Below are positions 11,307 through 40,400 of a stretch of DNA of 64,000 nt, piece by piece; within the stretch, counting starts at the first letter, position 1, and each line of letters opens with the position of its first letter. The DNA is taken from positions 95,534-159,533 of the forward strand of contig CAWCAH010000003.1 in NCBI GenBank assembly GCA_963793605.1, written 5' to 3'. The translations under genes and the position numbers were made by a program. Source of the stretch: an uncultured Thermoleophilia bacterium. GTDB lineage: Bacteria; Actinomycetota; Thermoleophilia; UBA2241. Below the pieces are notes generated by a model, which ran no database searches, was not told the DNA's origin, and saw only the letters and a program-made list of their open reading frames with translations.

Positions 11307-11309
11307 CGC

Positions 11310-13337
11310 ATGAGCCGCATCGGCGTCTTCGTCTGCCACTGCGGCGAGAACATCGCCCGCACCGTCGACTGCGCGGCCGTCGCCGAGGCCCTCAAGGACC
11401 ACCCCGGCGTCGCGCACTCCGAGGACTACAAGTACATGTGCTCGGACCCGGGTCAGGCCCTGGTCAAGAAGGCGATCGAGGAGAACAACCTCACCGGCGT
11501 CGTCATCGCCGCCTGCTCGCCGCACATGCACGAGAAGACCTTCCGCCGCGCGGTCGACCAGGCCGGCATGAACAAGTTCATGTGCGAGATGGCCAACATC
11601 CGCGAGCACTGCTCCTGGATCCACGAGGACAAGGAAGAGGCCACGGCCAAGGCCATCGACATCGGCCGCACGATCATCGAGAAGGTCAAGCACAACAAGC
11701 CGCTCGAGGTCATCAAGATCCCAGTGACCAAGCGCGCCATGGTCATCGGCGGCGGCATCGCCGGCATCCAGGCGGCGCTCGACATCGCCGACGGCGGTCA
11801 CGAGGTCGTGCTCATCGAGAAAGAGGCGTCCATCGGCGGCCACATGAGCCAGTTGAGCGAGACGTTCCCCACCCTCGACTGCTCGCAGTGCATCCTCACG
11901 CCGCGCATGGTCGAGGCGTACCAGCACCCCAACATCAAGCTCCACACCTGGAGCGAGGTCGAGAAGGTCGACGGCTACATCGGCAACTTCGAGGTCACCG
12001 TGCGCAAGAAGGCGCGCTCGGTGAACCAGGACCTCTGCAACGGCTGCGGCGACTGCATGGCCGTCTGCCCGTCCAAGAAGATCCCCAGCGAGTTCGACGC
12101 GGGGCTCAGCAACCGCACGGCGATCTACGTGCCGTTCCCGCAGGCGGTGCCCAACCAGCCGGTGCTCGACCGGCCCAACTGCAGCCTCTTCAAGGGCCGC
12201 GCCAAGGGCATCAAGAAGGACGCCTGCGGCAAGTGCAAAGAGGCCTGCCTCAAGGGCGCCATCGACTACGACACCGAGGACGAGTTCGTGAAGGAAGAGG
12301 TCGGGGCGATCGTCGTCGCCACCGGCTACAAGCTGTACGACATCGGCAAGGACCAGCCGGCCGGCCTCAAGGGCTACGGAGAGTACGGCTACGGCGAAGA
12401 CCCGGACATCATCGACGGCATGCAGTTCGAGCGCCTGGCATCGGCCAGCGGGCCGACGGCAGGCGCCATCCAGAGGCCGTCGGACGGCAAGGAGCCCAAG
12501 ACGGTGGTCTTCGTCCACTGCGTCGGCTCCCGCGACCCCGAGAAGGGCATGGCGTACTGCAGCAAGATCTGCTGCATGTACAACGCCAAGCACTCGATGC
12601 TGTACAAGCACAAGGTGCACGACGGGCGCGCGGTGGCCTTCTACATGGACATCCGCGCCAACGGCAAGGGCTACGACGAGTTCAGCCGCCGGGCGATCGA
12701 GGAGGACCGCGCCGAGTACATCCGCGGCCGCGTGAGCCGCATCTTCCGGGACGGCGACGTGCTCAAGGTGTGGGGCTTCGACACGCTGAGCGGCGAGCAG
12801 GTCGTCATCGACGCCGACATGGTGGTGCTGGCCACGGCCATCCGCCCCAACGACGGCGTCAAGGAGCTGGCACAGAAGCTCAGCTGCAGCGTCGACACCG
12901 ACGGGTTCATCAACGAGGCGCACCCCAAGCTGCGCCCCGTCGAGACCAACACCGCCGGCGTGTTCCTCGCCGGCGCCTGCCAGGCGCCGCGTGACATCCC
13001 GGACGCGGTGGCCATGGCCAGCGCCACCGGCGCCAAGGTCATGGCCCTGTTCAGCGCGGACGAGCTCGAGCGCGAGCCCGCCGTGGCCGTCGTCAACGAG
13101 CAGACCTGCATCGGTTGCATGCGCTGCGAGCTGGTGTGCCCCTACGGGGCCATCGAGCAGCGCGAGGTCTGCACCGTCGACGGCCAGGTCTGCGGCCACC
13201 TCGCCTACGTCAACCCGGGCGTGTGTCAGGGCTGCGGCACCTGCCAGGCCGTGTGTCTCAGCAAGAGCGTGGAGCTGCAGACGTTCACGGACGAGCAGAT
13301 CTTCAGTGAAATCCAAGCCCTCTGCGCGTGGGAGTGA
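11310..13337 (+). CDS. hdrA: Heterodisulfide reductase subunit A (FAD, Fe-S)
   Basis: 675 aa. N-terminal VFVCHCGENI cysteines, GGGIAGIQAALDIADGGHEVVLIEK dinucleotide fold, ferredoxin motifs CNGCGDCMAVCP and CIGCMRCELVCP, plus CQGCGTCQAVC. Confidence 0.93.
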   Translation: MSRIGVFVCHCGENIARTVDCAAVAEALKDHPGVAHSEDYKYMCSDPGQALVKKAIEENNLTGVVIAACSPHMHEKTFRRAVDQAGMNKFMCEMANIREHCSWIHEDKEEATAKAIDIGRTIIEKVKHNKPLEVIKIPVTKRAMVIGGGIAGIQAALDIADGGHEVVLIEKEASIGGHMSQLSETFPTLDCSQCILTPRMVEAYQHPNIKLHTWSEVEKVDGYIGNFEVTVRKKARSVNQDLCNGCGDCMAVCPSKKIPSEFDAGLSNRTAIYVPFPQAVPNQPVLDRPNCSLFKGRAKGIKKDACGKCKEACLKGAIDYDTEDEFVKEEVGAIVVATGYKLYDIGKDQPAGLKGYGEYGYGEDPDIIDGMQFERLASASGPTAGAIQRPSDGKEPKTVVFVHCVGSRDPEKGMAYCSKICCMYNAKHSMLYKHKVHDGRAVAFYMDIRANGKGYDEFSRRAIEEDRAEYIRGRVSRIFRDGDVLKVWGFDTLSGEQVVIDADMVVLATAIRPNDGVKELAQKLSCSVDTDGFINEAHPKLRPVETNTAGVFLAGACQAPRDIPDAVAMASATGAKVMALFSADELEREPAVAVVNEQTCIGCMRCELVCPYGAIEQREVCTVDGQVCGHLAYVNPGVCQGCGTCQAVCLSKSVELQTFTDEQIFSEIQALCAWE

Positions 13338-13339
13338 CG

Positions 13340-13846
13340 ATGACCGACTTCGAACCGCGCATCACCGCCTTCGTCTGCAACTGGTGCACCTACACCGGCG
13401 CCGACCTCGCCGGCACCAGCCGCCTGCACATGGCGAGCAACGTGCGCATCATCCGGCTGCCCTGCACGGGCCGCATCGACCCGCTGTTCATCGTCAAGGC
13501 GTTCGAGCGCGGCGCCGACGGCGTCATCGTCAGCGGCTGCCACCCGGCCGACTGCCACTACACGTCGGGCAACTACCACGCCCGGCGGCGGTTCGCCGTG
13601 TTCCACGACATCATGGAGTTCCTCGGCGTCGACCCGCGGCGCATGACCTTCAGCTGGGTCTCCGCCAGCGAGGGCGCCAAGTGGAAGGACGTCGTCAACG
13701 AGGCCGTGGCCAACGTCCGCGAGCTCGGGCCGTTCGAGGCGTACCGGGCGCTGGCGCCCGACGCCGTGGAGCCGTGGCCGGCCGCCACCGACGGCCTGGC
13801 GGCAGCCGGCGTCCCGGCTCCCGCCACCGAGGAGGTGGCGTCATGA
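13340..13846 (+). CDS. mvhD: MvhD/FlxD-like methyl-viologen-reducing hydrogenase delta subunit homolog
   Basis: ITAFVCNWCTY...IRLPCTGRIDPLFIVKAFERGADGVIVSGCHPADCHY is the MvhD signature. Lies immediately after hdrA. Confidence 0.88.
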   Translation: MTDFEPRITAFVCNWCTYTGADLAGTSRLHMASNVRIIRLPCTGRIDPLFIVKAFERGADGVIVSGCHPADCHYTSGNYHARRRFAVFHDIMEFLGVDPRRMTFSWVSASEGAKWKDVVNEAVANVRELGPFEAYRALAPDAVEPWPAATDGLAAAGVPAPATEEVAS

Positions 13847-14760
13847 CGGAAGTCGCCATCGCCCCGGCCTACGCCGGCGTCGAAGACCTCCGGCGCGTCG
13901 CCGCCGAGCTGCTCGAGAAGGGCGAGGTCCGCGTCATCGTCGGCTGGGAGGACGCCCGCAGGGGCGCCCGGCCGGTCTTCGTGACCGACCCGGCCCAGAC
14001 CGACAAGCTCATCTTCGACACGCGCTGTGTGCACAACCTCGTGACGTACCTGAACCCGCGCCGCGACCACGTCTCCGAGTTGGGCAAGATCGGGCTGGTC
14101 GTCAAGGGCTGTGACGTCAAGGCCGTCGCGGGGCTGCTGCGCGAGGCGCAGCTCGGCCGCGACCACGTGGTGCTCATCGGCGTGCGCTGCGGCGGCGTGC
14201 TCGAGGAGAACGAGCTCCCCGAGCCGCTGGCGCTCACGCCCGAGAACGTCGCGCCGCGCTGCTACGGCTGCGACAACCGCGAGCCGGCCCTGACGGACCA
14301 CCTCGTCGGCGAGTCGCAGCCGGAGCCCCCGCGGCCGGTCATGACCATCGACGAACGGGTCGCCGCCCTCGACGGTCAGTCGCTGGAGGAGCGCTGGGCG
14401 TTCTGGACCGACCAGTTCAGCAAGTGCGTGCGCTGCTACGCCTGCCGCCAGGTCTGCCCGCTGTGTATCTGCGAGCGCTGCATCGTCGAGAAGACGCAGC
14501 CGCAGTGGATCGACGCGTCCGCCCACCCGCGCGGCAACTTCAGCTGGAACCTCACGCGGGCCATCCACCTCGCCGGGCGCTGTGTGGACTGCGGCGAGTG
14601 CGAGCGCTTCTGCCCCGTCGGCATCCCGCTGAGCCTCCTCAACAAGAAGCTCCAGCACATCGTCAAGGAGCGCTACGACTACACCGTCTCCGATGACCCC
14701 GAGGTCCCGGCGCCGATCGGCGACTACCGCCTCGACGACCAGCAGGAGTTCATCAAGTGA
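13843..14760 (+). CDS. 4Fe-4S cluster protein, FlxC-like
   Basis: ATGA overlap with mvhD. Cysteine motifs CVRCYACRQVCPLCIC and CVDCGECERFCPVG. Confidence 0.7.
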   Translation: MTEVAIAPAYAGVEDLRRVAAELLEKGEVRVIVGWEDARRGARPVFVTDPAQTDKLIFDTRCVHNLVTYLNPRRDHVSELGKIGLVVKGCDVKAVAGLLREAQLGRDHVVLIGVRCGGVLEENELPEPLALTPENVAPRCYGCDNREPALTDHLVGESQPEPPRPVMTIDERVAALDGQSLEERWAFWTDQFSKCVRCYACRQVCPLCICERCIVEKTQPQWIDASAHPRGNFSWNLTRAIHLAGRCVDCGECERFCPVGIPLSLLNKKLQHIVKERYDYTVSDDPEVPAPIGDYRLDDQQEFIK

Positions 14761-15901
14761 GTACCTCCGCTCCTTCATCTCAGAGAGCGACCTGCGCGGG
14801 CTCGCCGCCGACCTGCTCGGCGCGGGCACCGGCGTCGTCGCGCCCGTCGCCACCGACATCTGCCAGTCGCCGGCGGCCGTCGCCGCCACGGCCTGCAGCC
14901 TCGACCACTCGCTGGTCACCATCGACTACAGCGCCATCACCTCGGCCGACGAGATGGACCTCTCGCGCGCTCTGCCGCAGCTCTCGCTCAAGCAGTTCTT
15001 CCTGCCCGAGCACGAGGCGCTGTGCCGCTGGAAGCAGAGGGGCACCACGTTCGAGGTCGAGGAAGTGCCGACCGAGTTCGCCCCGCGCGTCGTCCTGGGC
15101 GCCAAGCCCTGCGACGCGGCCGCGCTCGCGGTCGTCGACAAGGTCATGAACTGGGACTACGAGGACGAGCTGTGGAACGGCCGCCGCGCCGCCACGACGG
15201 TCATCAACCTCACCTGCCCCATGATCGACGACAGCTGCTTCTGCACGGCCGTCGGGGCGGCGCCGGACGACGTCAAGGGCGCCGACGGCCTGCTCACGCC
15301 GGTCGACGGCGGCTACGTGTACGAGCCGGCGACCGACAAGGGCAAGGCCCTGGTCGAAGGCCACAAGGCGCGCTTCACCGCCGACGTGCCGGCCGACACC
15401 CTCGGCCGCCAGGCCGACGACGAGCGGGCGGCGGCGCGCGAGCGCGTCGCCGGCAACCTGGAGATCGACGCGGCCAGCGTGCGCGACTGGATCGACACGC
15501 ACTTCGAGGACCCGCTCCTGACGCAGCTCGCCATGCGCTGCAACGGCTGCGGCGCCTGCACGGGCGTCTGCCCCACCTGCCACTGCTTCGACATCGTGGA
15601 CGAGGAGGAGGGCGTCGGCCGCGGCACCCGCCGGCGCTGCTGGGACACCTGCCAGTCGCCGGTGTTCACGCTGCACGCCAGCGGTCACAACCCGCGCGAC
15701 AACCAGCACGTGCGCTACCGCCAGCGCATCAACCACAAGTTCGCCGTGTACCCGCTCAAGTTCGGCGAAGTGCTCTGCACCGGCTGCGGCCGCTGCACCC
15801 GGGTGTGTCACGCGGGTCAGGACCTCGTCGAGATCCTGCAGGCCATCGACATCGCCGCCCGCCGACCCCGAGACGCCGAGCCCGCGGAGGCCGCCTCGTG
15901 A
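14693..15901 (+). CDS. AsrA/FlxB-like 4Fe-4S protein; start uncertain
   Basis: CNGCGACTGVCPTCHCFD and CTGCGRCTRVCHAG motifs. The conserved N-terminus seems to begin near 14762 (YLRSFISESDLRGL). The only in-frame ATG is 14693, which gives a 68-nt overlap. GTG 14757 would fit if one base were missing. Confidence 0.65.
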   Translation: MTPRSRRRSATTASTTSRSSSSEYLRSFISESDLRGLAADLLGAGTGVVAPVATDICQSPAAVAATACSLDHSLVTIDYSAITSADEMDLSRALPQLSLKQFFLPEHEALCRWKQRGTTFEVEEVPTEFAPRVVLGAKPCDAAALAVVDKVMNWDYEDELWNGRRAATTVINLTCPMIDDSCFCTAVGAAPDDVKGADGLLTPVDGGYVYEPATDKGKALVEGHKARFTADVPADTLGRQADDERAAARERVAGNLEIDAASVRDWIDTHFEDPLLTQLAMRCNGCGACTGVCPTCHCFDIVDEEEGVGRGTRRRCWDTCQSPVFTLHASGHNPRDNQHVRYRQRINHKFAVYPLKFGEVLCTGCGRCTRVCHAGQDLVEILQAIDIAARRPRDAEPAEAAS

Positions 15902-16729
15902 ACATCTACCAGCCACTGCTCACCACCGTCGCCGAGATGGTGGACGAGACCTCCGACACGCGCACGCTGAAGCTCGAGTTCCAGGACGACGCCGTGCGCG
16001 AGAGCTTCAACTTCAAGGCCGGCCAGTTCGGCGAGTACGGCGTGTTCGGCGCCGGCGAGAGCACGTTCTGCATCGCCAGCTCGCCGACGCGCGAGGGCTA
16101 CATCGAGTGCAGCTTCAAGAGCATCGGCAAGGTGACGAGCGCCCTGCGCGAGGTCAACGTCGGCGACACCGTCGGCTTCCGCGGCCCCTACGGCAACTGG
16201 TTCCCCGTGGACGACTGGAAGGGCAAGGACGTCGTGTTCGTCGCCGGCGGCATCGGCCTGGCGCCGGTCCGCTGCGTGATCTGGAACGTCCTGGACCGGC
16301 GCGACGAGTTCGGCGACGTCACTATCGTCTACGGCGCCCGCTCCGTCGACGACCTGGTGTACAAGCGCGAGCTGGAGGAGTGGGGCTCGCGCCCGGACGT
16401 CAAGATGGTCAGCACGGTCGACCCCGGCGGCGAGACCAAGGACTGGAAGGGCGAGGTCGGCTACGTCACGCCCATCGTGGAGAAGACGGCGCCGAAGGCC
16501 GACAACGCCGTCGCCGTGCTCTGCGGGCCGCCGATCGTCGATCAAGCTCACGATGCCGGTGCTGGAGAAGCTCGGGTTCGCCGACGACGCGATCTTCACC
16601 ACCCTCGAGAACCGCATGAAGTGCGGGCTCGGCAAGTGCGGCCGCTGCAACATCGGCCCCGTGTACGTCTGCAAGGACGGGCCCGTCTTCACCGCCGCCC
16701 AGATGAAGGAACTGCCGCCGGAGTTCTGA
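15898..16729 (+). CDS. FAD/NAD(P)-binding 2Fe-2S oxidoreductase (AsrB/FlxA/PyrK-like); one frame break near 16540
   Basis: GTGA overlap with the previous gene. FNFKAGQFGEY...GPYGNWF...VFVAGGIGLAPV is a ferredoxin-reductase fold. After ...AVLCGPPIV the frame changes. The protein continues IKLTMPVLEKLGF...RMKCGLGKCGRCNIGPVYVCKDGPVF (2Fe-2S motif) to the TGA at 16727-16729. Confidence 0.75.
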
Positions 16730-16767
16730 GCCGGACGCTCCGGCGCCTCGGCGCTGACCTCAAAACG

Positions 16768-16806
16768 GCGATGCGGCCGGCAGCCTCTCGGCGCCGGCCG
16801 CATCGC
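16768..16806 (+). terminator. GC-rich hairpin after the hdr/flx cluster
   Basis: GCGATGCGGCCGGC-(11 nt)-GCCGGCCGCATCGC forms a 14-bp perfect stem, 39 nt after the flxA-like stop. There is no clear T-tract. Confidence 0.5.
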
Positions 16807-22252: not shown

Positions 22253-23689
22253 TCAGGGCGCCGGCACCACCGCGTCGAGCTGCTCGACGATGCCCTCGGG
22301 CAGCGACGCGACCTCGTGCGTCGCCAGGAGCTCGAGCGCCCGCCGGCGCGCCTTCTCGGTCGCGTCCAGCGCGCCGCCCTCGGCCCAGCGGTCGTAGCTG
22401 GCGCGGTTCAGGATCTTGCCGCGCCACTGCTCCTCGCGCAGGTGCTTGCGCGTGTGCCGCTGGCCGAGATAGTCGCCGCCGGGGCCGACGGCCTTGAGCA
22501 CGTCGACGGCCAGCGTCTCGTCGTCGACCTCTATCGGCCTGAGCAGGTGCCGGTTGCGGCTGATGAACTCGGCCACCAGGACGACCTCGGCGAGGGAGCC
22601 GGAGAGGCCGAAGTCCATGTAGCCCACGTCATGGTTGAGGTTGGCGCCCAGCTGCATGGAGAGCTTGGTGATCTCGTCGGCCTCCATGCCCGCCTGGGCG
22701 TCCACCACCTGCGCGTCGGTGTGGCCGCTGAACCCCCAGTTGGGGATGTCCAGCCACTTGGCCATCTCGCACTCCAGCGCGTACGCGCGGATGAACTCCG
22801 GCGAGTTGTACGACGACTGCGACGTCGCCATGTCGAGCGTGTTGGGGCCCTGGCCGATGACGAACGGGGCCCCCGGCGCACGCAGCTGGTGCATCACCAG
22901 GCCGAACAGCGCCTCGGCGATACCGAGGGTGATCTGGCCGGGCGTTGTGATCGGCGCGGTGCCGCCGGCGACCGGCGACGGGCAGTACGTGGACGGCACG
23001 CCCTTGTCGGCGCAGAAGAGCAGCTTGTCGACCGTCTCGTAGGGGTGCTTGAGCGGCGTGACCGGCTGGTTGTACATGATGAAGTACGGCTTGTCGCGAA
23101 GCGCCTGCTCGCCGCCGCGGACGGCGCAGGCCATGCGCCACATGGGCTCTACGGTCTCGACGCCGCCGGCGGTCATCACGAGCGGCTTGGTGGTGGCCGG
23201 GATCATCGCGCGGAACTGCTTGGGGTAGGCCTCCTGCGCGTCCATGCCGTCCGGGTACGCGCCCGACATGACGAAGTCGAGCTCGGGCAGCGAGTCGCAG
23301 AGGCGGGCCGCCTCGGCCACGTCCGCCATCTTGCCGAGGCGGCGCTCCCCGGTCTCGAGGTCGTGCAGGTGCATGACGTCCGAGCCGTTGCCGAAGTAGC
23401 TGCGGCGACCACCGAGGTCCATGGCGGGCTCGCCGGCGCGGTCGTAGACCACGAAGCTCGCCGGCACGGACTCACGCGCCTGCTCGACGAGCGCGGCCGG
23501 CACGTGCACGAGGCCGTCCGCGTCCCTGGTACAGCCGCCGTCCAGCATCACCTGCTCGCCCTCTTCGTGGAGGACGATCATGCCCATCTCCGAGAGGATG
23601 CCGAGGGCCGCGTCGTAGATGCGCCGCTTCTGGTCCTCGTTGAGGAAGCTGACGCGCCCGGCGCCGATCTCCTTGCTGCTGTCTGCCAT
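22253..23689 (-). CDS. MttB-superfamily methyltransferase, non-pyrrolysine paralog (quaternary amine:corrinoid methyltransferase-like)
   Basis: ATG 23689 follows GGGAG. Collinear with the other MttB-family genes here. His occupies the position of the Pyl codon (NWGFSG-H-TDAQVVDAQAG). No internal stop. Confidence 0.85.
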   Translation of the reverse strand: MADSSKEIGAGRVSFLNEDQKRRIYDAALGILSEMGMIVLHEEGEQVMLDGGCTRDADGLVHVPAALVEQARESVPASFVVYDRAGEPAMDLGGRRSYFGNGSDVMHLHDLETGERRLGKMADVAEAARLCDSLPELDFVMSGAYPDGMDAQEAYPKQFRAMIPATTKPLVMTAGGVETVEPMWRMACAVRGGEQALRDKPYFIMYNQPVTPLKHPYETVDKLLFCADKGVPSTYCPSPVAGGTAPITTPGQITLGIAEALFGLVMHQLRAPGAPFVIGQGPNTLDMATSQSSYNSPEFIRAYALECEMAKWLDIPNWGFSGHTDAQVVDAQAGMEADEITKLSMQLGANLNHDVGYMDFGLSGSLAEVVLVAEFISRNRHLLRPIEVDDETLAVDVLKAVGPGGDYLGQRHTRKHLREEQWRGKILNRASYDRWAEGGALDATEKARRRALELLATHEVASLPEGIVEQLDAVVPAP

Positions 23690-23777
23690 GGTCACTCCCG
23701 GAGCGAGATTGCCGACGAGGCGGCCCCGGACTGCTGCGCCGGGGGCCGCCTCGCCGAACACTACACTGTTTGCGGAG

Positions 23778-25247
23778 CTACTTCACTCCGAGTTCGTTCT
23801 CCGCGGCAGCGATAATCGACTTAAGTTCTGCCGAGACGCCCTCCGGCAGCGGCTCCGGCTGGTGCGTCTCCAGGATCCGCCGGGCCTCGGCGAGCGAACG
23901 GTCGTACAGCGTGGTCGACCCGGCGGCGGTCCACTCCTCGCGGACCCGCCGGTCGATGAGCTTCGAGCTCGACTGCCCGCGCATACCGGCGTACGTGTCG
24001 TCGTGCGAGAGGAAGTCCTTGAAGGGACCGATCTCGGCGATGACGTCGACCGACAGCGTCGCGTCCGTGACCGGGATGCCCGGCACGGTGAACTTGACCA
24101 TGCGCGCGAACTCCGCGTCCATGACCAGCTGCGCGTAATCGATGGTGACGCCCGACTCCAGCATCCCCAGCCCGTAGATCAGGTTGGCCCCTGCCAACGC
24201 CGGCAGCAGGCTGGTGATCGTCTTCTCGTGACCGGATTGGGCGTCCGCCACTTTGGAGTCGCCCTACGCACCGGCCACCCAGCTGGGCAGCAGGTAGAAG
24301 CGCGCGAGGCAGGCGACCCCGGCCCCGATCATGCCGCACTCGGGGCTGCCGACCGAGGCGCTGGCGAAGCGCAGGTCCAGCGCGGTCGTCGATGAGCCGT
24401 AGATGACCGGCGCGCCCCTCTTCGTGAGCTGCGCCAGCGTGATGCCGCTGAGCACCTCGGCGTTGTGCGTGACGAGCGTGCCGGCGAGCGAGACGGGAGA
24501 GGAGCCGCCGGCCATCGCCATGCTGAGCACGTTGACGGGGATGCCGGCGCGAGCGCCCTCGATGATGATCTCGCAGGCGTCCTTGACCAGCTTGAGCGGG
24601 CTCACCGGGCAGGTGAGGAAGCTGAGGATCGGGCGGCGGCGCAGCTGCTCCCGCCCCCCGACGATGGCCGCGGCCATGTCGATCATCTTGCGCGCGCAGA
24701 AGCCGCTGAGCGGGCCGATGGTCGCGTGCTTGGTGGTGTTGCTGAAGATCGCCTCGGCGTTGTGCAGCGCGGCCGTCTCCGGCGGCGCGTCGTGGGCGCC
24801 GAGCGGCCGCTCGACCACGTCGATCTCCGGCAGTGCGTCGATGATCTTCGTACAGTCGGCGACGTCCTGCTTGCGGCTCTCGTGCAGCTCGCCGGTGTAC
24901 GGGTCGACGACCTGGATGCCCTCGCCGAAGTTGGTGAAGCCGACCCGGCCGTCCTCGAGCACGACGTCCCTGGCCGGGTCGCGACCGCACAGGACGACGG
25001 TGGAGGGCGCCGAGCGGAGGGCGTCCTCGACGAGGTGCGCCGGCAGGCGCACCACGTTCTGCTCGCCGTCGACCTCGGCGCCGGCCGCCGCGAAGATCTC
25101 ACGGGCCTCGTCGTCCTCGACGAAGACGCCCGTGCGCGACAGCACTTCGAGCGTCGCGCCGTGGATCTCCCGCAGCTCGTCCTCCGTGAACACCTCGAGC
25201 CTGAAACCGCCGCTCTTGCGCGCTCCCGCGCGCGGGTTCCTTCTCAT
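23778..25247 (-). CDS. mttB: Trimethylamine:corrinoid methyltransferase with an in-frame TAG (putative pyrrolysine) at codon 328
   Basis: Track ORFs 24264..25247 and 23778..24251 are in the same frame. They are separated by TAG (plus-strand cta, 24264-24266) plus 4 sense codons. Joined product is 489 aa: ...ARFYLLPSWVAGA-TAG-GDSKVADAQSGHEK.... GAGGAGG RBS before ATG 25247. Confidence 0.85.
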
Positions 25248-25469: not shown

Positions 25470-26096
25470 CTACCCCACCAGCTCCTTCGCCCGCTCCACC
25501 GCCATGCCGGCGTTGGCGCCGTAGCCGTCGGCGCCGATCTCCTCGGCCCAGGCGGCCGTGACCGGGGCGCCGCCGACCATCACCTTGACGCTCTCGCGCA
25601 GGCCGGACTCCTTGAGACGCGCGATCGTCTCGGCCATGTGCGGCAGGGTGGTCGTGAGCAGGGCGCTCATGCCGACGATCTGCGGCTGGTGCTCCCGCAC
25701 GGCGGCGACGAAGGCCTCGGCCGTGACCCCGGTGCCGAGGTTGACGACCGTGAAGCCGGCGCCCGAGAGCAGCATGCCGACGAGGTTCTTGCCGATGTCG
25801 TGCAGGTCGCCCTCGACGGTGCCGATGACGACGGTTCCGAAGCCCGAGCCCTCGCCCTCGGCCATCAGCGGGCGCAGCAGGTCGAGGCAGGCCTGCATCA
25901 CCCGCGCGCTGAGCAGCACCTCGGGGATGAAGCACTCGCCCTCGCGCATGCGCGCTCCGACGACGTCCATGCCCGGCAGGAGCGCCTCGTCGAGGATCTC
26001 GCGCGGCGCCGCGCCGCTCGCGACGAGCGCCTGCGTCATCGCCAGGGCGACGGCCTCGTTGCCGTCGATGATGGACTGCTTGAGCTGGTCTTTCAT
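25470..26096 (-). CDS. Corrinoid (B12-binding) protein of the methylamine methyltransferase system (MtbC/MttC-like)
   Basis: 208 aa. B12-binding-2 helical cap followed by the DxHxxG motif (GDLHDIGKN) and SALLTTT...VMVGGAPV. Sits between mtbB and mttB. TAG stop. Confidence 0.9.
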   Translation of the reverse strand: MKDQLKQSIIDGNEAVALAMTQALVASGAAPREILDEALLPGMDVVGARMREGECFIPEVLLSARVMQACLDLLRPLMAEGEGSGFGTVVIGTVEGDLHDIGKNLVGMLLSGAGFTVVNLGTGVTAEAFVAAVREHQPQIVGMSALLTTTLPHMAETIARLKESGLRESVKVMVGGAPVTAAWAEEIGADGYGANAGMAVERAKELVG

Positions 26097-26101
26097 GCCG
26101 A

Positions 26102-27496
26102 TCAGCCTCCCGCCGTGCGTTCCTTGAACTTCTCGACACTGTTGATCGGCACGTCCAGCACACGGGCGATGTTGAACTTCGCCTCGATCTGGTTGGCCTG
26201 CCACGGCTGGCTGATCGCGTAGCTGTGCACGCGACCGAACCCGTGCTCGTTGCGCACGTCGGTCATCACGACCGGGTCGGAGAGATCGAACGGTGTCACG
26301 CCGAGCTTGTCGGCGACGTACTGCTTGGCTTCCTTGAGGCGCATGCCCCGAGTCATCTGCATACGGGCAACCAGGTCTCCGGCTGCGCGAATACCGCCGA
26401 TGCTCGCGGCTTGTGCGTGGGCGTTGTGCATCCCGTGGGGATCGCCCGAGCCCACCTACAACCCGTCGACGTGCAGCAGTTCGACGAAGGACTTCGCCGC
26501 GCGGCAGACAGCGTCGGAAGGCAGATGGACGAACATCGGCACGCCGCCGACGCCCATACCGGCGTTGGGGTGCACGGGGATCGTCGCCACCTCCATGCAC
26601 GGCTTGATGAGAGCGATCGTGCGCGCCATGTTCCAGGCGAGCGACTTGCCCGTGTTGATGTTGACCACAGGGCCGAACATGGTGGCGCCGGCCTCCTGGG
26701 CCAGCAGCAGCTGGTCCTTGGGCCACAGGCCGGCGAGGCGCTTGCCGCCCCACTCGAGCTCACCGTGCATGCCGAGCACGAACTCGCCGGCCATGCCCAG
26801 CTCGACGCCCATGTCCGGGTACTTCTCGCGGATGATCTTGGTGGCGCGCAGGGCGGCGAGGAACTCCGGGTCGCCCGAGGCGCCGGTGGTGTCCCAGTCG
26901 AGCGCGTCGGCTCCGGCTTCCCACTGCGAGTCGGCGAGCTTGACCATGTCGACCACGGCCATCTCGATCGCTTCTTCCTCAGCCTCCCGGGCCTCGGCGA
27001 TCTTGCCGAGCGGGAGCAGCTCGTTCCAGTTGTCGCAGGGGCCGTCGGGCTTGGAGTAGAGGCCGAGGTTGGTCATGACGCCGTACTGCAGCGGCGCGAT
27101 GGTCGCGAGCTGGGCGTCGTGCATGTACTGCGCCTCATAGGCGAGGATCGTGCGTACGACCTTGAGTGAGTAGTCGCCGACGCAGAGCTCGAGCAGGTCG
27201 GCGCCCATCCACTGCTCGTAGCTCTGCAGGTCCTGGATGCGGGTCGCGTGCGTCTTCATGCCGGTGCCGTCGCAGCTGAGGACGATCTCCTCGCCGACGT
27301 CGACGCCGATGAAGCGCAGCGGCGACGCGTAGATCTCGAGCAGGTGGTCGATCTCGTCGTCGGTCAGCAGCGGCACCTTGGCGCGCTTGGCCGCCACCTC
27401 CGAGCCGGCGACGAGATCCGCCCGGATCTCACTGCGCGTCAGCTGCGTGAAGGTACCGTCGCCCATGCGGGTCGGTATCCTGGGCTCGTTCGTCAT
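26102..27496 (-). CDS. mtbB: Dimethylamine:corrinoid methyltransferase with an in-frame TAG (putative pyrrolysine) at codon 347
   Basis: Track ORFs 26456..27553 and 26102..26455 abut in the same frame, separated only by TAG (plus-strand cta, 26456-26458). Joined product is 464 aa: MTNEPRIPTRMGDG...NAGMGVGGVPMF...ELLHVDGL-TAG-VGSGDPHGMH...AAGDLVARMQMTRGMRLKEAKQYVADKLG. It is collinear with MtbB as I remember it. Confidence 0.88.
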
Positions 27497-27545
27497 GCGC
27501 TCCCTCCCAAAGCGTGCGCCGGCGCGCCGCAGGGCGCGCCGGTCA

Positions 27546-27565
27546 CTAATCAACCGGTCAATTAG
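27546..27565. promoter_or_regulatory. 20-bp palindromic operator CTAATCAACCGGTCAATTAG upstream of mtbB (candidate TetR site)
   Basis: 8/10 palindromic. 17/20 identical to the site at 44137-44156 next to the TetR gene. Lies 50 nt upstream of the mtbB ATG. Confidence 0.55.
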
Positions 27566-27605: not shown

Positions 27606-28562
27606 TCAGCAACTGCTCGTCTCGCCCGTCGCGCGCGGCATGGACTCGAGGTACTCCTCGAGAGTCTCGGGGAATCCCGGGGCTCGCAGGTCGGTGCCGC
27701 AAGCCTCCTCGAGGAGCTTCGCGACCATGGCGTACTCGGCCGCGCCGCCGTAGCGGGCGCGGCCGCGGATGAACAGCTGCTCGGCGGTGCCGGCGATGTC
27801 CAGCGGCACGTCGAGGTCGCGGCCGAGCATCATGGCCACGCCGAGGTCCTTGAGGCACAGGTCGAACGAGAAGCCGACATCGTAGCTGCCGCCGAGGATG
27901 GTCGTGCTCTCCGTCTCGAGGATGAAGCTGTCGCCGGAGCTCGCGCGCAGGATCTCCCACGCCAGTCGCAGGTCGATGCCGCTCCGCTTGCACAGCATGA
28001 GCGCCTCCGCCGACGCCGCGATGTGGATGAAGGCCAGCATGTTGGACACGACCTTGATGCTCGACGCCTTGCCCAGTGCGCCCACGTAGAAGACGCTGCC
28101 GCCGACGGCGCGGAACACGCCCTCGTAGGTCCGGAAGACGGCCTCGTCGCCGCCGACGAGCACGGTGATCGTCCCGGAGGCGGCATTGTGCACACCGCCC
28201 GTGACCGGCGCCTCGAGCGTGTGGACGCCGCGCTCGTCCAGCAAGCCGCTGAGACGCTGCAGCTCACGCGGGTCGTTGGTGCTCATCTCGATCCACGCGG
28301 CGCCCGGCGCGAACCCCTCGAGCAGGCCGTTCGCGCCGGTGACGACGTCGGCGACCGCGGCGACGGACGGCAGACAGGTGATGACGGCGTCCGAGGCGCG
28401 GGCGGTCGCGGCCGGCGACGAGGCCCACTCCGCGCCCGACTCCAGGAGCCCCCCGGCCGCCTCACGGTCGAGGTCGTGGACGGTGACGTCGAACCCGGCG
28501 GACAGCAGATTCGCGGCAAGGTGGTGCCCGATGTGCCCAAGGCCGATGCAGCCGATCCTCAT
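27606..28562 (-). CDS. NAD(P)-dependent 3-hydroxyacid dehydrogenase (HIBADH/6PGDH-like family)
   Basis: MRIGCIGLGHIGHHLAANL Rossmann N-terminus. ...LEAPVTGGVHNAASGTITVLVGG...GKASSIKVVSNML is typical of the family. Confidence 0.85.
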   Translation of the reverse strand: MRIGCIGLGHIGHHLAANLLSAGFDVTVHDLDREAAGGLLESGAEWASSPAATARASDAVITCLPSVAAVADVVTGANGLLEGFAPGAAWIEMSTNDPRELQRLSGLLDERGVHTLEAPVTGGVHNAASGTITVLVGGDEAVFRTYEGVFRAVGGSVFYVGALGKASSIKVVSNMLAFIHIAASAEALMLCKRSGIDLRLAWEILRASSGDSFILETESTTILGGSYDVGFSFDLCLKDLGVAMMLGRDLDVPLDIAGTAEQLFIRGRARYGGAAEYAMVAKLLEEACGTDLRAPGFPETLEEYLESMPRATGETSSC

Positions 28563-29077
28563 GGCGTCACGTCCTGAAGCGGCTCCACACCGACGTCCTC
28601 GCCCGCCCACTCGAAGTTGGTCGTGTCCGTGCGCAGGATGTGCCAGGTGTCTGTGTACGCGATGCCCTCGATCTGGTCGAGGTCCTCGTTGAGGAACCTG
28701 TAGAGAGCCTCGTTGTCGGGCAGGTGCACCTCGATGAGGATGTCGAAGGAGCCCGTGGTGTAGCCGATGTAGGCTATGTTCTTCATGGCCGCAAGGCGCT
28801 CGCCCACGCCCCTGCCGTACCCGCGGTTCACGCGGATGCCGACCATCGCGTCCACGGGCAGACCGATCGCCGCCGGGTTCACGCCGGTCCAGGGCAGCAC
28901 GGCTCCCCGCTTGATGAGACGGTCCACACGATTGCGGACCGTCGGCTCCGTGACGCCGATGGAGCGCGCGATGCTGGCGTAGGACCGGCGCGCATTGGGC
29001 CGCAGCAGCTTGAGGATGCGGCGGTCCAGGTCGTCCAGCCGGCTCGTTCCGAAGGGCGCCTGCCCCCATCTGATCAT
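28559..29077 (-). CDS. Lrp/AsnC family transcriptional regulator
   Basis: LDDLDRRILKLLRPNARRSYASIARSIGVTEPTVRNRVDRL HTH followed by an RAM-type domain. ATGA overlap with the downstream dehydrogenase. Confidence 0.85.
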   Translation of the reverse strand: MIRWGQAPFGTSRLDDLDRRILKLLRPNARRSYASIARSIGVTEPTVRNRVDRLIKRGAVLPWTGVNPAAIGLPVDAMVGIRVNRGYGRGVGERLAAMKNIAYIGYTTGSFDILIEVHLPDNEALYRFLNEDLDQIEGIAYTDTWHILRTDTTNFEWAGEDVGVEPLQDVTP

Positions 29078-29154
29078 CGGCCCTCCTGGTCTCGCGACGA
29101 TCGTCGTTGCGGTGATCGCGACGCGGTGAAGCGCCGTGCGACACTGTAGCATTT

Positions 29155-29180: not shown

Positions 29181-29319
29181 AGAAGCAACGGTGTCTTGGC
29201 GATTCCGCCTTGCGAAACACTGCTTCACAGTCTACAGTGCCCCGGAAACGTGCGGCCGGGCGTCGGACTCCCCGCACGATACGCGCCCCACGAGGGCCCA
29301 CACGAACGGCGAGGGATCC

Positions 29320-30768
29320 ATGAGAGCGAAGACGGTGTGGCTGAGCGAGTCGGAGAAGAGTGCGATCGTCGACGAGGCTCTGGAGTTGCTCGCCGGCGTC
29401 GGCATCCGGCTCGCGGGGTCGTCGGTGCTGCCGCTGCTGTCGGAGCGCGGCGCCACGGTCGACACGGAGACCGGTATCGCGCGCCTGCCGCGCGAGCTCG
29501 TCGAGTGGGCGCTCTCACAATGCCCGCGCGCGGTCCGGCTGGCCGGCGCGACGCCCGACGACGACGTGCTGCTGGCGGAGGGCGAGCCCTTCCACTTCGC
29601 GAACAGCGGCTGCGTCGCCAAGACGCTCGACTTCCGCACCGGCGTCAGACGCGCCAGCACCCTGCAGGACCTGCGCGAGGGCACAGGCCTCCTCGACGAG
29701 CTGTCCGAGCTCGACGTGGTGTGGACCATCGTGAGCGCGTCCGACGTGCCCGTCGAGCAGCGCGAGCTCGTCGAGTACTTCGCGCTGCTCACCGAGACGA
29801 CCAAGCACGTCACCTTCGTGGACCCGCCGGACGACCCGGTCGCGGTCGGCCGCATCTGCGAGGTGCTCGGCGGCGACCTCGTCCGGTTCCGGGAGCGGCC
29901 GAGGATCTCGACCGTGCTCACGGCGGCGTCTCCCCTGCAGATCGACGGCCCCGCACTGGACATCCACATCGCCCTGGCCCGTCACGGTGTGCCCGTCCAC
30001 GCGTACTCCATGTCCATCGCCGGCGCCACCTCGCCGGTGACCCTGGCAGGGTCGGTCGTGCAGGGCGTGGCCGAGTTCCTGGGAGCCGCGACGGCGCTGC
30101 AGGTCGCGGCGCCCGGCGCCCGCCTCATCTTCTGTTTCGGCTCGGGTGTGCTGGACATGCTGCGCACGACGTTCTCCATGGGCAACATCGAGAGCGCGCA
30201 GATGGGCGCCATGGCCACCGAGGTCGGTCACTACCTCGGCGTGCCGACGCTCAACCCGGGGATGTCGACGGACGCAAAGCACGCCGGCCTGCAGGCGGGC
30301 TACGAGAAGGCCCTGAAGCTCGGCGCGGTCTGCACGGCGAGTCCGGACATCGTCACCGGGTGGGGGCTGATGGACTCGCACAACACCATGTTCCTGCCGC
30401 AGTCGGTGGTGGACAACGAGATGGCGGCCATGGTCCGGCGGCTCAACGCCGAGGTCGAGGTGTCTCACACCACGCTGGCGGCCGACTCTATCGGCAGGGT
30501 GGGTCCGGGCGGAGGGTTCCTCGGCGAGCGCGAGACCGCCAAGCGGATCCGGGCCGGGGAGCACTACCTGCCGACGGTGTCGAACCGCCTGTCCTTCGAG
30601 AAGTGGGCGGAGGAGGGCGCGACCGAGAACGACACCGCAGAGGCCCAGGTCGAGAGCCTTCTCGCCCGGCACCTGGAGCAGCCCTGTCTGGCTGCGGACC
30701 AGATCGACGACCTCGCCGCGGTCTGCGGCGTCGACGAGGCCAGCGTGCGCCGCGCCCGGCGCGACTGA
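29320..30768 (+). CDS. MttB-superfamily methyltransferase, non-pyrrolysine paralog
   Basis: 482 aa, collinear with the MttB family. Ser occupies the Pyl-equivalent position (NPGM-S-TDAKHAGLQAG). Confidence 0.85.
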   Translation: MRAKTVWLSESEKSAIVDEALELLAGVGIRLAGSSVLPLLSERGATVDTETGIARLPRELVEWALSQCPRAVRLAGATPDDDVLLAEGEPFHFANSGCVAKTLDFRTGVRRASTLQDLREGTGLLDELSELDVVWTIVSASDVPVEQRELVEYFALLTETTKHVTFVDPPDDPVAVGRICEVLGGDLVRFRERPRISTVLTAASPLQIDGPALDIHIALARHGVPVHAYSMSIAGATSPVTLAGSVVQGVAEFLGAATALQVAAPGARLIFCFGSGVLDMLRTTFSMGNIESAQMGAMATEVGHYLGVPTLNPGMSTDAKHAGLQAGYEKALKLGAVCTASPDIVTGWGLMDSHNTMFLPQSVVDNEMAAMVRRLNAEVEVSHTTLAADSIGRVGPGGGFLGERETAKRIRAGEHYLPTVSNRLSFEKWAEEGATENDTAEAQVESLLARHLEQPCLAADQIDDLAAVCGVDEASVRRARRD

Positions 30769-31886: not shown

Positions 31887-32667
31887 GTGACCGAGATCGG
31901 CGACTTCGCGCTGGACTACTTCTCCCTCAAGGGGACGCACTGCCATCGTCACCGGCGGCAACACGGGTCTCGGCCAGGCGTTCGCGGTGGCGCTCGCGGC
32001 CGCCGGGGCCAACCTCTTCGTGCCCAGCATCATGGACGACGACGGCACCACCGGCCCCCTGGTAGAGGAGCGCGGCGGCCGCTACGAGTTCGTCAAGGCC
32101 GACGTGACCGCGCCGGGCGCCCCGGCCGAGATCGTCGCCGCGTGCGTCGAGCGGCTCGGCTCGCTCGACATCCTCGTCAACAGCGCCGGCATCTGCCCGC
32201 TGGCGAGCGTGCTCGAGTTCGGCCGCGCGCAGTGGGACGCCACCGTGGCCGTGAACCTCACGGCCGCCTTCGAGATGGCCTACGAGTCCGCCAAGGTCAT
32301 GGTCCCGCAGGGCTCCGGCAAGATCATCAACATCTGCTCGCTGTTCTCGTTCCTGGGCGGCCGCTGGTCGTCCGCGTACGCGGCCACCAAGCATGGTCTG
32401 GCCGGCTTCACCAAGGCCTACGCCGACGAGCTGGCCGAGTCCGGCATCCAGGTCAACGGCATCGCGCCCGGCTACTACGCCACGGAGATCACGACGGCCA
32501 CACGCAGCGACCCGGTGACCAACCAGCGCGTGCTGGACCACATCCCGGCCGCGCGCTGGGGCGACCCCGCCGACCTCATGGGCGCCACCGTGTTCCTGGC
32601 GAGCAAGGCCTCCGACTACGTCAACGGCCACGTCCTGACCGTCGACGGCGGCTACCTCGTCCGCTAG
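31887..32667 (+). CDS. Short-chain dehydrogenase/reductase (KduD/FabG-like); one frame break near 31935
   Basis: GTG 31887 follows AAAGGAG. VTEIGDFALDYFSLKG is followed, after one extra base, by RTAIVTGGNTGLGQAFAVALAAAGA (TGxxxGxG), then NSAG, YAATKHGL (YxxxK) and PGYYATE. TAG stop. Confidence 0.8.
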
Positions 32668-32685
32668 GGCGGGGAGGATACGGAC

Positions 32686-34116
32686 ATGGCCGGCAAGTAC
32701 CTCATCGGCATCGACAACGGCACGCAGAGCACCAAGGTGGTCATCTACGACCTCGACGGCAACGTGGTCTGCGAGGCACGGCGCACGCTGCTCCCCATGG
32801 AGCACCCCCAGCCGGGGTACGCGGTCCACCCCGACGACGACCTCTGGGAGTCCATCGTCGCGGCCAGCCGCGAGGCGATGACGCAGTTCCCCGGCGACCC
32901 CGAGGACATCCTCGGCGTCGGACTGTGCACCATCCGCTGCTGCAAGACGTTCCTCAAGGCCGACGGCAGCCTGCTCGAGCCCGTCATGAGCTGGATGGAC
33001 ACGCGCGCCTACCAGCCCTGGCTCCCGGACGACCCCGAGCTCGCCTGGGCCACCACCTCGTCCGGCTACATCACCCACCGGTTCACCGGGGAGTTCCGCG
33101 ACAGCGCCGCCAACAACATCATCCTGCAGTGGCCCATCGACACCGACACGTGGCAGTGGGACCCGGCGCTGTTCCCGGAGTTCAACATGCGCCCGGAGCT
33201 GCTCGTGGAACTGCAGATGCCGGGCGACGTCGCCGGGTACGTCACGGCGGAGGCGGCGGCCGCGACCGGCATCCCGGAGGGCCTGCCGGTCGTCACCACC
33301 GCCAACGACAAGGCCGTCGAGGCGCTCGGCTCCGGCTCGCTCGACGAGCGCACGGCGCTCATCTCCCTGGGCACCTACATCGCCTCCATGGTGCACGGCC
33401 ACAAGAACCGTCAGGACGCGGTCGACTTCTGGACCAACTTCGCCTGCGTCCCGAGCCGCTACCTCTACGAGAGCGGCGGCGTGCGCCGCGGCATGTGGAC
33501 GCTCAGCTGGTTCCTCGACCTGCTCGGGCCGGAGCTCGCCGCGGCCGCGGCGAGCCAGGAGACCTCGCGCGAGGTGTACCTGGAGCGCGAGGCCGAGCTG
33601 GTCCCCGCAGGGAGTTGCGGCCTCATGACGGTGCTGGACTGGCTCGCCCCGACGGACAAGCCCTTCCGCAAGGGCGAGATCATCGGCTTCGACGCGCGCC
33701 ACACCCGGGGCCATGTCTACCGGTCCATCCTCGAGGCGATCGCCCTGACGATGAAGCAGAACGTGGACGCCATGTGCGCCGAGCTGGGCATCGACCTGCG
33801 CGAGATCGTCGTCTCCGGCGGCGGCGCCAACAGCCCGCTCTTCATGCACATCTTCGCCGACGTGTTCGGCGTGCCGGCCTCGCGCAACATCGGCAGCAGC
33901 GGCGCCAGCCTGGGCGCCGCCATCTGCGCCGCCGTCGCCACCGGCGTGTACCCGGACTTCGAGACCGCCTCGGCCGCCATGCGCAGCAGCCGCGAGTCGT
34001 TCGCCCCGGGGCTCGAGAACCACGACGTGTACCGGCGCATGAACGAGAGCGTGTACCGCGCCATCCACGACGCCACCGACCCCATTCTCGAGCAGTCCTT
34101 CACCATCTTCCACTGA
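32686..34116 (+). CDS. FGGY-family carbohydrate kinase (xylulokinase/glycerol kinase-like)
   Basis: 476 aa. YLIGIDNGTQSTKVVIYD N-terminal phosphate-1 motif and the C-terminal VSGGGANSPLFMHIFADVFG motif. Confidence 0.85.
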   Translation: MAGKYLIGIDNGTQSTKVVIYDLDGNVVCEARRTLLPMEHPQPGYAVHPDDDLWESIVAASREAMTQFPGDPEDILGVGLCTIRCCKTFLKADGSLLEPVMSWMDTRAYQPWLPDDPELAWATTSSGYITHRFTGEFRDSAANNIILQWPIDTDTWQWDPALFPEFNMRPELLVELQMPGDVAGYVTAEAAAATGIPEGLPVVTTANDKAVEALGSGSLDERTALISLGTYIASMVHGHKNRQDAVDFWTNFACVPSRYLYESGGVRRGMWTLSWFLDLLGPELAAAAASQETSREVYLEREAELVPAGSCGLMTVLDWLAPTDKPFRKGEIIGFDARHTRGHVYRSILEAIALTMKQNVDAMCAELGIDLREIVVSGGGANSPLFMHIFADVFGVPASRNIGSSGASLGAAICAAVATGVYPDFETASAAMRSSRESFAPGLENHDVYRRMNESVYRAIHDATDPILEQSFTIFH

Positions 34117-38247: not shown

Positions 38248-39095
38248 ATGCCGAAGAAAGGTCTCTTCGACCTGCACGAGATGAAGCGCGCCGGTGAGCA
38301 GATCGCCTGGCTCACCGCCTACGACTACCCCACCGCCAGCTTCGAGGAGGCGGCCGGGATCGACATGATCCTCGTCGGCGACTCGCTCGGCATGTGCGTC
38401 TACGGCTACCCCGGCACCGTGCCGGTGACCATGGACCAGTGCATCGTCCACTCGCGAGGCCGTGCGCCGCGGCGCCCCCAACACGTTCATCGTCGGCGAC
38501 ATGCCGCTGGGCAGCTACCAGGCCTCCGACGAGGACGCCGTGACCAACGCCATCCGCTTCCTCAAGCAGGCCAACGTCGACGCCATCAAGCTCGAGGGCG
38601 GCGTGCGCACCGTGAGCCGCGTGCGCGCGATCCTCGACGCCGGCGTCGCCGTCTGCGGCCACATCGGCCTCACGCCGCAGAGCTCCGGCCAGCTCGGCGG
38701 CCACAAGGCCCAGGGCCGCACGCTCGAGAGCGCCAAGCTCGTGGTGGAGGACGCCCGCGCCCTCTACGAGGCGGGCGTCCAGCTCCTGCTCGTCGAGGCC
38801 GTGCCGCCGGAGGTCGCCGGCTTCATCCGCCGCGAGCTGCCGATCCCGGTGCTCGGCATCGGCGCCGGCGCCGACGTCGACGGCCAGCTGCTCATCGTGT
38901 CACGACGTGCTGGGCACCTTCGCCGCCTTCACGCCCAAGTTCGTGAAGAAGTACGCCGACCTCGCCGCGGTCTCGACCGCCGCGCTCACCGAGTACGTCG
39001 GTGACGTGCGCGGCGGCGCGTTCCCCGAGGAGGAGCACTGCTACCGCATGCTCGAGGGCGAGCAGGAGAGGTTCGCCGACTGGGCCAAGAGCTGA
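38248..39095 (+). CDS. panB: 3-methyl-2-oxobutanoate hydroxymethyltransferase (ketopantoate hydroxymethyltransferase); two frame breaks near 38458 and 38900
   Basis: AGGAGG precedes ATG 38248. Three consecutive frames carry WLTAYDYPTASF...ILVGDSLGM, then VRRGAPNTFIVGDMPLGSYQ...IKLEGG...VCGHIGLTPQS...LLLVEAVP...IPVLGIGAG, then HDVLG...TPKFVKKYADL. Confidence 0.8.
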
Positions 39096-39166: not shown

Positions 39167-40376
39167 GTGCCCGCCGACCGTGTCGCGCGGCTCGGCACCG
39201 AGACCGTGTTCGCGGTCTCGGCCGAGGCGGCCGCGCTCGCCGCGCAGGGACGGACGATCTACCCGTTCCACCTCGGCGACCTCAACATCCCGACGGCGGA
39301 GCCCATCGTCGAGGCGATGAACAGGGCCATCCGCGACGGCAAGACCACCTACTGCGCCAACGCCGGCGTCGCCCCGCTGCGCGAGGCGCTCGCCGCCGAC
39401 GTCGGCGCCGCCCGCGGCGTCACGTACACCGCCGACAACGTCTCGGTGCAGCCGGGCGGCAAGCCGGTGATCGGCAAGTGGCTCATGGCCGCCATGAACA
39501 TGGGCGACGAGGTCCTCTACCCCAACCCCGGCTTCCCCATCTACAGCTCGTTCATCGAGTTCGTGGGCGGCGTCGCCGTGCCCTACGGGTTCGTGGACGA
39601 GGGCGACCGCTACACGATCGACATCGACGCGATCGAGCGCAGCATCACGCCGCGCACGCGCCTGCTCATCCTCAACGACCTGCACAACCCCACGGCCGCG
39701 GAGTGCACCTCCGAGGAGCTCGACCGCATCGCCGAGATCGCTGTCCGGCACGACCTGCAGGTGCTCAGCGACGAGGCGTACTTCGACGTGCGCTTCCAGG
39801 GCGCGAGCGAGTCGATCGTCTCGCGCCCGGGCATGGCCGAGCGCACCGTCATCCTGTACACGTTCAGCAAGAAGTACGCGATGACGGGCTGGCGCCTCGG
39901 CGCCGCGGTCGGACCCAAGCCGATCATCGACATCATCACGCAGGATGAACGTCAACGTGGAGTCGTGCCCCAACCACTTCGCCCAGTACGGCGCCCTCGA
40001 GGCGCTCACCGGCGACCAGGCCGGGCCCCGCGAGATGATGGCCCGGCTCAAGGGCCGCCGCGACGCGGCGCTCCGCATCCTGAACGAGACGCCGGGCGTC
40101 CGCTGCCACACGCCGGAGAGCACGTTCTACCTGTACCCGGACGTCACGGACGCCGTCCGCCTGACCGGCTGCGCCGGCCACGAGGACTTCCGGCGCCTCC
40201 TCCTCGACAACACCGGCGTGTCGTTCTGCACCCGCCAGCACTTCGGGAAGGCGCTGCCGGACGAGACGCGGTACCATCTCCGCCTGGCCTATTCAGGCGT
40301 CACCACAGCACAGATCGAGGAGGGCCTCGGCGCGTTCAAGGCATTCCTCGAGACAACCGAGCCCGCAGGTTCCTGA
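39167..40376 (+). CDS. Class I/II pyridoxal-phosphate aminotransferase (aspartate/aromatic type); one frame break near 39944
   Basis: NPGFPIYSS, LILNDLHNPT, SDEAYFD and YTFSKKYAMTGWRLG (PLP lysine) are followed, in another frame, by NVNVESCPNHFAQYGALEAL... Confidence 0.8.
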
Positions 40377-40400
40377 GTCCCCCCTGAAGGAGTCGTCACC

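Follow-up and report, generated by a model that had tools for sequence, protein, structure and literature searches.

The mtbB gene and its in-frame amber codon

The stretch of DNA analysed here, called the window throughout, is 64 kb long with a GC content of about 70%, and it belongs to an uncultured actinobacterium whose relatives in the databases are titled Actinobacteria, Actinomycetota or Thermoleophilia. Two metagenome contigs from ENA, ERZ25039462:contig_30352 and ERZ25039596:contig_2619, match it at 99.0–99.7% identity. On its minus strand lies mtbB, the predicted gene of a dimethylamine:corrinoid methyltransferase, and it is the TAG codon interrupting this gene that concerns us. Two open reading frames (ORFs), 26456..27553 and 26102..26455, abut there in one frame with the TAG as their sole separator. 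Read from the ATG at 27496, the frame continues through 346 sense codons, the TAG (codon 347) and 117 further sense codons to a TGA at 26102–26104. This ATG was retained as the start because a Shine-Dalgarno-like sequence precedes it and because most homologues are 346 aa long.

Pyrrolysine (Pyl) is the catalytic residue of the MtbB family. When the two frames are joined, with X at the TAG, the protein matches the Pfam family Dimeth_Pyl (PF09505, cut-off 25 bits) in one stretch with 543 bits (E 6.7e-163), residues 8–459 falling on model positions 4–462 of 463, and it passes the NCBIfam equivalog TIGR02368 with 404.8 bits, the cut-off being 369.1. A match of the joined frame on this scale cannot be chance. 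Among solved structures there is none of an MtbB against which single residues could be compared. An Rfam scan of the whole window gave two matches above gathering score, one to PYLIS_2 in mtbB and the other to PYLIS_3 in mttB, a second methyltransferase gene two places downstream (families RF02509 / RF02510, gathering scores 36 and 38 bits, respectively). The PYLIS families in Rfam model 100 nt that begin with the UAG (PMC3639795). In both alignments model positions 1–3, the UAG itself, coincide with the TAG of the window and the next 33 codons follow free of gaps. For mtbB the PYLIS_2 consensus O-I-G-V-G-D-P-M-G-M...G-I-R-A-A-G-D-L-V-A-R-M stands against O-V-G-S-G-D-P-H-G-M...G-I-R-A-A-G-D-L-V-A-R-M in the window. 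Judged by its sequence, the gene is a genuine member of the MtbB family, with its TAG at the predicted pyrrolysine position. An earlier note on this DNA, made from the letters alone, had described two minus-strand ORFs abutting in frame across a TAG at 26456–26458, a joined protein of 464 aa with the TAG as codon 347, collinearity with MtbB and a canonical position for the interruption; the first two are seen and counted directly in the sequence, from the ATG at 27496, and the last two are supported by the Pfam and Rfam alignments.

It does not follow that an RNA element is present. Fold stability of the two 100-nt stretches was scored as a z value against dinucleotide shuffles, and no secondary structure beyond what composition gives was seen in either (z −1.3 in mtbB, −1.6 in mttB), the Rfam alignments of the stretches containing several non-canonical pairs. 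Because these folds are no stabler than shuffles, the PYLIS scores are best read as mostly homology of coding sequence, not as an RNA element that has been shown, and a functional PYLIS hairpin in the window was discarded as unsupported by folding. Insertion of Pyl does not need a PYLIS element (PMC3639795).

The gene does not stand alone. The minus-strand order is that of an Lrp-type regulator, a dehydrogenase, mtbB, a corrinoid protein, mttB and an mttB paralogue of the non-Pyl kind (Table 1), and mttB, a predicted trimethylamine:corrinoid methyltransferase, is itself interrupted by one in-frame UAG. Its product aligns with Methanosarcina barkeri MttB (7xcm) over residues 3–483 at 418 bits, the TAG falling on residue 334, which we take to be the pyrrolysine site of that protein.

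Table 1. Features of the methyltransferase cluster, in window coordinates
Feature	Coordinates	Strand	Evidence and remarks
Lrp/AsnC-type regulator	28559..29152	-	NCBIfam Lrp/AsnC-family hits; Pfam HTH_AsnC-type and AsnC_trans_reg in L001
HIBADH-type NAD-binding dehydrogenase	27606..28562	-	NCBIfam 170–200 bits, below cut-offs; between regulator and mtbB
Shine-Dalgarno-like GGGAGGGA	27501..27508	-	4 nt before mtbB ATG; 5-nt spacing to GGGAGG core; read from sequence
mtbB, dimethylamine:corrinoid methyltransferase	26102..27496	-	464 codons including one in-frame UAG; PF09505, TIGR02368
UAG, predicted pyrrolysine codon, codon 347 of mtbB	26456..26458 (plus-strand cta)	-	Aligned to Rfam PYLIS_2
PYLIS_2 match (mtbB), 100 nt from UAG	26359..26458	-	Rfam, 67 bits against 36
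Corrinoid (B12-binding) protein, 208 aa	25470..26096	-	Pfam B12-binding_2 and B12-binding; begins 5 nt past mtbB; stop TAG 25470–25472
mttB, trimethylamine:corrinoid methyltransferase	23778..25247	-	489 codons, one in-frame UAG; TIGR02369 739.5 bits against 525; terminator TAG 23778–23780
UAG, predicted pyrrolysine codon, codon 328 of mttB	24264..24266	-	Aligns with 7xcm residue 334 (counted in alignment) and PYLIS_3 positions 1–3
PYLIS_3 match (mttB), 100 nt from UAG	24167..24266	-	Rfam, 71.9 bits against 38
Non-Pyl MttB-superfamily paralogue, last cluster gene	22253..23761	-	TIGR02369 318 bits, below 525; no in-frame stop

The interruption of mtbB is a conserved feature of the gene. Both the TAG and the open frame downstream of it are retained in seven relatives (L001 and L004–L009) with proteins 77–100% identical to the window MtbB, and the TAG is also found in a paralogue that is 55% identical (L002). 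The database search returned 1018 relatives of MtbB, and among the best 120 of these, the set surveyed for length, nearly all are 344–347 aa long, that is, they end at the TAG codon. The ratio of nonsynonymous to synonymous substitution rates (dN/dS), computed by the Nei-Gojobori method separately on the two sides of the mtbB TAG, is 0.13–0.22 over the 117 downstream codons, as against 0.21–0.32 upstream. Values of 0.13–0.22 are those of purifying selection, and for this reason the codons past the TAG would appear to be translated in frame in a gene that is not dead.

Pyrrolysine machinery and the reading of the UAG

An apparatus able to decode such codons is present in the lineage. When a collection of species-representative genomes was scanned for GC-rich codings of the PylS motif LRPMLAPNLY, 83 genome loci were recovered, each with a PylSc homologue 34–47% identical to M. 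mazei PylSc; some 56 of the 83 have a GC content of at least 0.67, nearly all of them titled Thermoleophilia, Actinomycetota or Actinomycetes, with a few from Desulfovibrio or Deltaproteobacteria. A Thermoleophilia metagenome-assembled genome (MAG), MFD02416.bin.2.102 (L094), carries the full pyl set, with every protein above its NCBIfam cut-off (PylSc 323 bits, PylSn 127, PylB 447, PylC 349, PylD 184) and a tRNA-Pyl(CUA) detected by ARAGORN, and two further loci, L018 and L053, agree with it. The synthetase of the lineage is split into a PylSc of about 286 aa and a PylSn of 109 aa. Its pylT, GGGGGGTCGATCGGAAGGATCAGCGTGGGCTCTAAACCCACGTAGGCGGGTGTGACTCCCGCACTCCCCGCCA, is 73 nt long with an encoded CCA end and nearly identical in nine loci (L018, L019, L045, L053, L077, L089, L093, L094 and L097), the anticodon stem and the T stem of the L077 copy carrying paired, compensatory changes. 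The layout of the cassette, as in L094 (10001–20861) and also in L093, L097, L018 and L053, comprises pylSc, a corrinoid protein gene, a B12/radical-SAM gene, usually a SAM-methyltransferase gene, pylSn and a Germane/Gmad2 gene, with pylT downstream of pylBCD; in the place of the SAM-methyltransferase L095 has an abhydrolase gene and L104 nothing. Past the cassette come nitroreductase, ThiS, Fer4 and AOR genes. In no locus seen does the cassette adjoin mtbB or mttB.

One link within a single MAG joins PylSc to a close counterpart of the gene studied here, in assembly GCA_012719015.1 (isolate AS06rmzACSIP_249). Its contig JAAYBE010000160.1 carries an mtbB (P0025) that is 86% identical to that of the window, with the TAG at the same place and the same Hdr-type synteny, and its contig JAAYBE010000239.1 encodes a PylSc scoring 313 bits. 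We therefore understand the cluster, with a probability of about 0.88, as a methylamine-demethylation operon whose UAG codons in mtbB and mttB are read as pyrrolysine by a Pyl system of the bacterial type encoded elsewhere in the genome. The expansion of the genetic code that the earlier note had read into the gene is thereby supported, because mttB, in the same operon, has its amber codon at the position of Pyl334, because selection acts past the TAG of mtbB, and because the lineage has the pyl cassette and includes a MAG that combines pylSc with an mtbB 86% identical to this one. In the process that we envisage, a pylT with its CUA anticodon, a split PylSc/PylSn and PylBCD would be encoded elsewhere in the same genome; tRNA-Pyl charged by PylSc/PylSn would decode the UAG as Pyl in both proteins (codon 347 in MtbB, codon 328 in MttB); the full-length enzymes would move a methyl group from dimethylamine and trimethylamine, respectively, onto the Co(I) corrinoid protein; and the methyl group would then probably pass to tetrahydrofolate, through a methyltransferase encoded outside the window. 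That the UAG yields pyrrolysine, which amines the enzymes act on and where the methyl group ends up are here what we infer.

Several observations weigh against this understanding. None of pylT, pylS, pylB, pylC and pylD was found within the window, where the search combined ARAGORN, Rfam, a comparison of some 50 called genes with NCBIfam models, a tblastn run with M. mazei PylSc as the query and an nhmmer run with the actinobacterial pylT; the window has no tRNA gene of any kind, and no pyl gene lies within 10 kb of mtbB in the long-contig relatives L005 and L009. Seven exact look-ups of PylSc placed none in the samples ERZ25039462 and ERZ25039596, which hold the near-identical contigs, all of them falling elsewhere. 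No pyl cassette was thus found for the window's own organism, and we infer its presence there. Nor was a methylcorrinoid methyltransferase acting on tetrahydrofolate or coenzyme M, or an activase of the RamA type, recognised in the window. Finally, TAG is an ordinary terminator here: it ends 5 of the 38 window genes, among them the corrinoid gene and mttB themselves (the next in-frame stop lying 38 and 101 codons further on, respectively), and it makes up about 20% of the stops in 381 rough gene calls around the pyl cassettes. Since TAG is a normal terminator, readthrough carries a cost that is unexplained, and since it also ends other genes here, amber decoding must be partial or conditional. 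Suppression of this partial or conditional kind is described for other Pyl-using bacteria. For methanogens, too, an ambiguous use of amber codons with partial or conditional suppression has been reported (PMC12626013).

The same observations give what substance it has to the most durable of the other explanations, which we hold to be improbable, namely that the UAG is read as a standard amino acid by a near-cognate or another suppressor tRNA, the Pyl pathway being lacking and the enzyme weakly or differently active. The failure to find the cassette in this organism and the lack of any depletion of TAG among stop codons would both fit. Against it, the lineage possesses a conserved, complete cassette with a nearly invariant pylT, the MAG with the 86%-identical and syntenic mtbB has pylSc, and the keeping of UAG at two catalytic sites makes sense only if a special residue is placed there.

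It is harder still to regard mtbB as a pseudogene, its TAG being a recent inactivating mutation that would leave a truncated product of 346 residues or nothing at all. The window does contain other broken genes (an AOR gene with a frame break at about 45678, a partial panB and a partial aminotransferase gene) and its lack of pyl genes would agree with a dead gene; yet the TAG stands exactly at the Pyl column, it has been retained across 55–100% protein identity, the frame past it is open up to the normal end of the family under the purifying selection described above, and mttB, from the same operon, is likewise interrupted, at the position of Pyl334. Scarcely credible, likewise, is a split enzyme made without Pyl, in which translation would stop at the TAG and restart at the adjacent GTG, the two polypeptides then assembling. 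A GTG does directly follow the TAG in the window, and gene callers do split mtbB into two separate ORFs, but L005–L008 encode alanine after the TAG, so that a start codon is not kept, no ribosome-binding site precedes the GTG, and the residue lost would be, from what is known of the family, the catalytic one. As for an error of assembly or consensus hiding a sense codon, it may be set aside: the source resembles a long-read assembly, and between the window and L004 there are 11 single-base indels over 15.8 kb, but these errors are indels and not substitutions, none of them lies in mtbB or mttB, and the TAG is not a consensus error because mtbB is 100% identical in L004, an independent metagenome contig, and because the TAG is there in L001 and L004–L009, recurring in assemblies, some of them from short reads, that stem from different samples and projects (L005–L009, L098–L103).

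Genes around the operon

The corrinoid protein encoded between the two amber genes stays below every NCBIfam cut-off, with scores of 190–220 bits (MtbC 191/350, pyl_corrinoid 195/215, MtgC 220/370). The two samples with the near-identical contigs also contain a second, paralogous mtbB-corrinoid-mttB cluster, at 8466–13609 of L002 (ERZ25039596:contig_742) and in L003 (ERZ25039462:contig_13376). Compared with the window, its corrinoid protein is 100% identical (99.8% as DNA), its MtbB 55% and its MttB 66%, and it looks, from these sequences, as if the corrinoid gene alone had recently been gene-converted or transferred. The mtbB of this paralogous cluster is frame-broken in both assemblies. At the head of the operon in the window, the Lrp/AsnC-type protein might possibly regulate the cluster.

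Five uninterrupted paralogues of the MttB superfamily are scattered over the window, at 22253–23761 (-), 29191–30768 (+), 40401–41855 (+), 41940–43346 (+) and 61091–62485 (+). They score 258–349 bits on TIGR02369, under its cut-off, and are presumably quaternary-amine methyltransferases; several of them adjoin ABC transporter and dehydrogenase genes. A third candidate for an amber-interrupted gene, two ORFs abutting in frame across a TAG at 31891–34116 (+), was rejected, 31987–32667 (+) being a complete SDR gene that ends in TAG and 32686–34116 (+) an FGGY kinase gene with its own ribosome-binding site and ATG.

Further away, the region 9732–16800 (+) carries HdrC/B-like, HdrA-like, MvhD-like and Fer4 genes together with HydB/HydG-like genes. 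A cluster of this Hdr type is syntenic with mtbB in the relatives L005 and L098–L101, which hints at an electron-bifurcating partner for the oxidation of the methyl group. An AOR-ThiS set resembling the flank of the pyl cassettes is found at 44.2–46.0 kb of the window, and also beside mtbB in L009. The AOR gene (44226–45999, +) shifts frame near 45678, and panB and an aminotransferase gene (38462–39004 and 39167–40387, both +) match only parts of their models; these three could be either consensus indels of long reads or real pseudogenes.

Relation to known systems and significance

The system of M. barkeri, MtbB1/MtbC, is the obvious term of comparison. Both genes belong to PF09505/TIGR02368 and to the same length class, with one UAG at the same column as judged through the Rfam model, and share GDP..G(I/M)(R/K)AAGDLVARM after it as well as an adjoining corrinoid gene. 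They differ in that the host is here a bacterium, with 70% GC, in that the window has no MtbA/coenzyme M methyltransferase, the methyl acceptor being presumably other than coenzyme M, and in that the corrinoid protein scores under every NCBIfam equivalog cut-off. The likeness to M. barkeri MttB, with its Pyl334 (PDB 7xcl, 7xcm, 7xcn), belongs to the neighbour mttB and not to mtbB. Bacterial users of Pyl such as Desulfitobacterium hafniense, Acetohalobium arabaticum and the deltaproteobacterial symbionts have split pylSc/pylSn, pylTBCD and Pyl-type mttB/mtbB; the present lineage has likewise a split synthetase and likewise keeps TAG as an ordinary stop, and it departs from them in its phylum, Actinomycetota, and in the distinct order of its cassette. 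A split PylSc/PylSn was present in all the bacterial systems surveyed by Guo et al. 2022, whose list of 81 bacterial genomes includes two Actinobacteria with PylRS genes (PMC9630628).

Closer in phylogeny are the Actinobacteriota MAGs of Stordalen Mire, for which Ellenbogen et al. 2023 report the expression of Pyl-type mttB and mtbB (PMC10805028); the Pyl genes are called there by truncation only, and a pyl cassette does not seem to be described. Like the window, these MAGs are of Actinobacteriota and have amber codons in both mttB and mtbB; the window is of another habitat and assembly set, with its nearest contigs in ENA ERZ25039462 and ERZ25039596. Three MAGs from that site, bog_752, palsa_647 and palsa_645, are among our PylSc-positive loci (L076, L019 and L084, respectively). 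The names 'pyrrolysine--tRNA(Pyl) ligase large subunit [Thermoleophilia bacterium]' and 'Dimethylamine methyltransferase (Dimeth_PyL) [Actinobacteria bacterium ADurb.BinA094]' are already in use at NCBI. The basic phenomenon, Pyl-type mtbB and mttB in actinobacteria, is thus already published. The breadth of the trait in Thermoleophilia and Actinomycetota seems to be under-described in the searchable literature, where Thermoleophilia and pyrrolysine occur together only in unrelated work. When the earlier note called a Pyl-type gene uncommon in a very GC-rich bacterial genome, it was right as regards this literature and wrong as regards the data, with 1018 relatives of MtbB and some 56 PylSc loci of high GC.

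With the present gene, amber-encoded pyrrolysine gains one more well-supported case beyond the methanogens and Firmicutes, and public genomes show the trait to be far commoner among Actinomycetota of high GC than one would gather from the 'two Actinobacteria' of the 2022 survey. The more interesting residue of the analysis is the size of this actinobacterial radiation, together with the TAG terminators within the operon. One may entertain, as a tentative view that we would not yet favour, that the Actinomycetota of high GC include a large Pyl-decoding radiation in soils, sediments and digesters, hardly described so far, in which TAG makes up about 20% of stops, and which would need either a tightly conditional expression of pyl or some unknown discrimination between Pyl and stop; such organisms could be a sizeable non-methanogenic sink for trimethylamine and dimethylamine. 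Methylamine use by abundant bacteria of soils and digesters is easily missed, because gene callers split amber genes in two. Methylotrophic methanogens may face competition for methylamines from these actinobacteria, which, with TAG terminators inside the very operon that contains the amber-interrupted genes, offer a natural case for studying life with an ambiguous amber codon.

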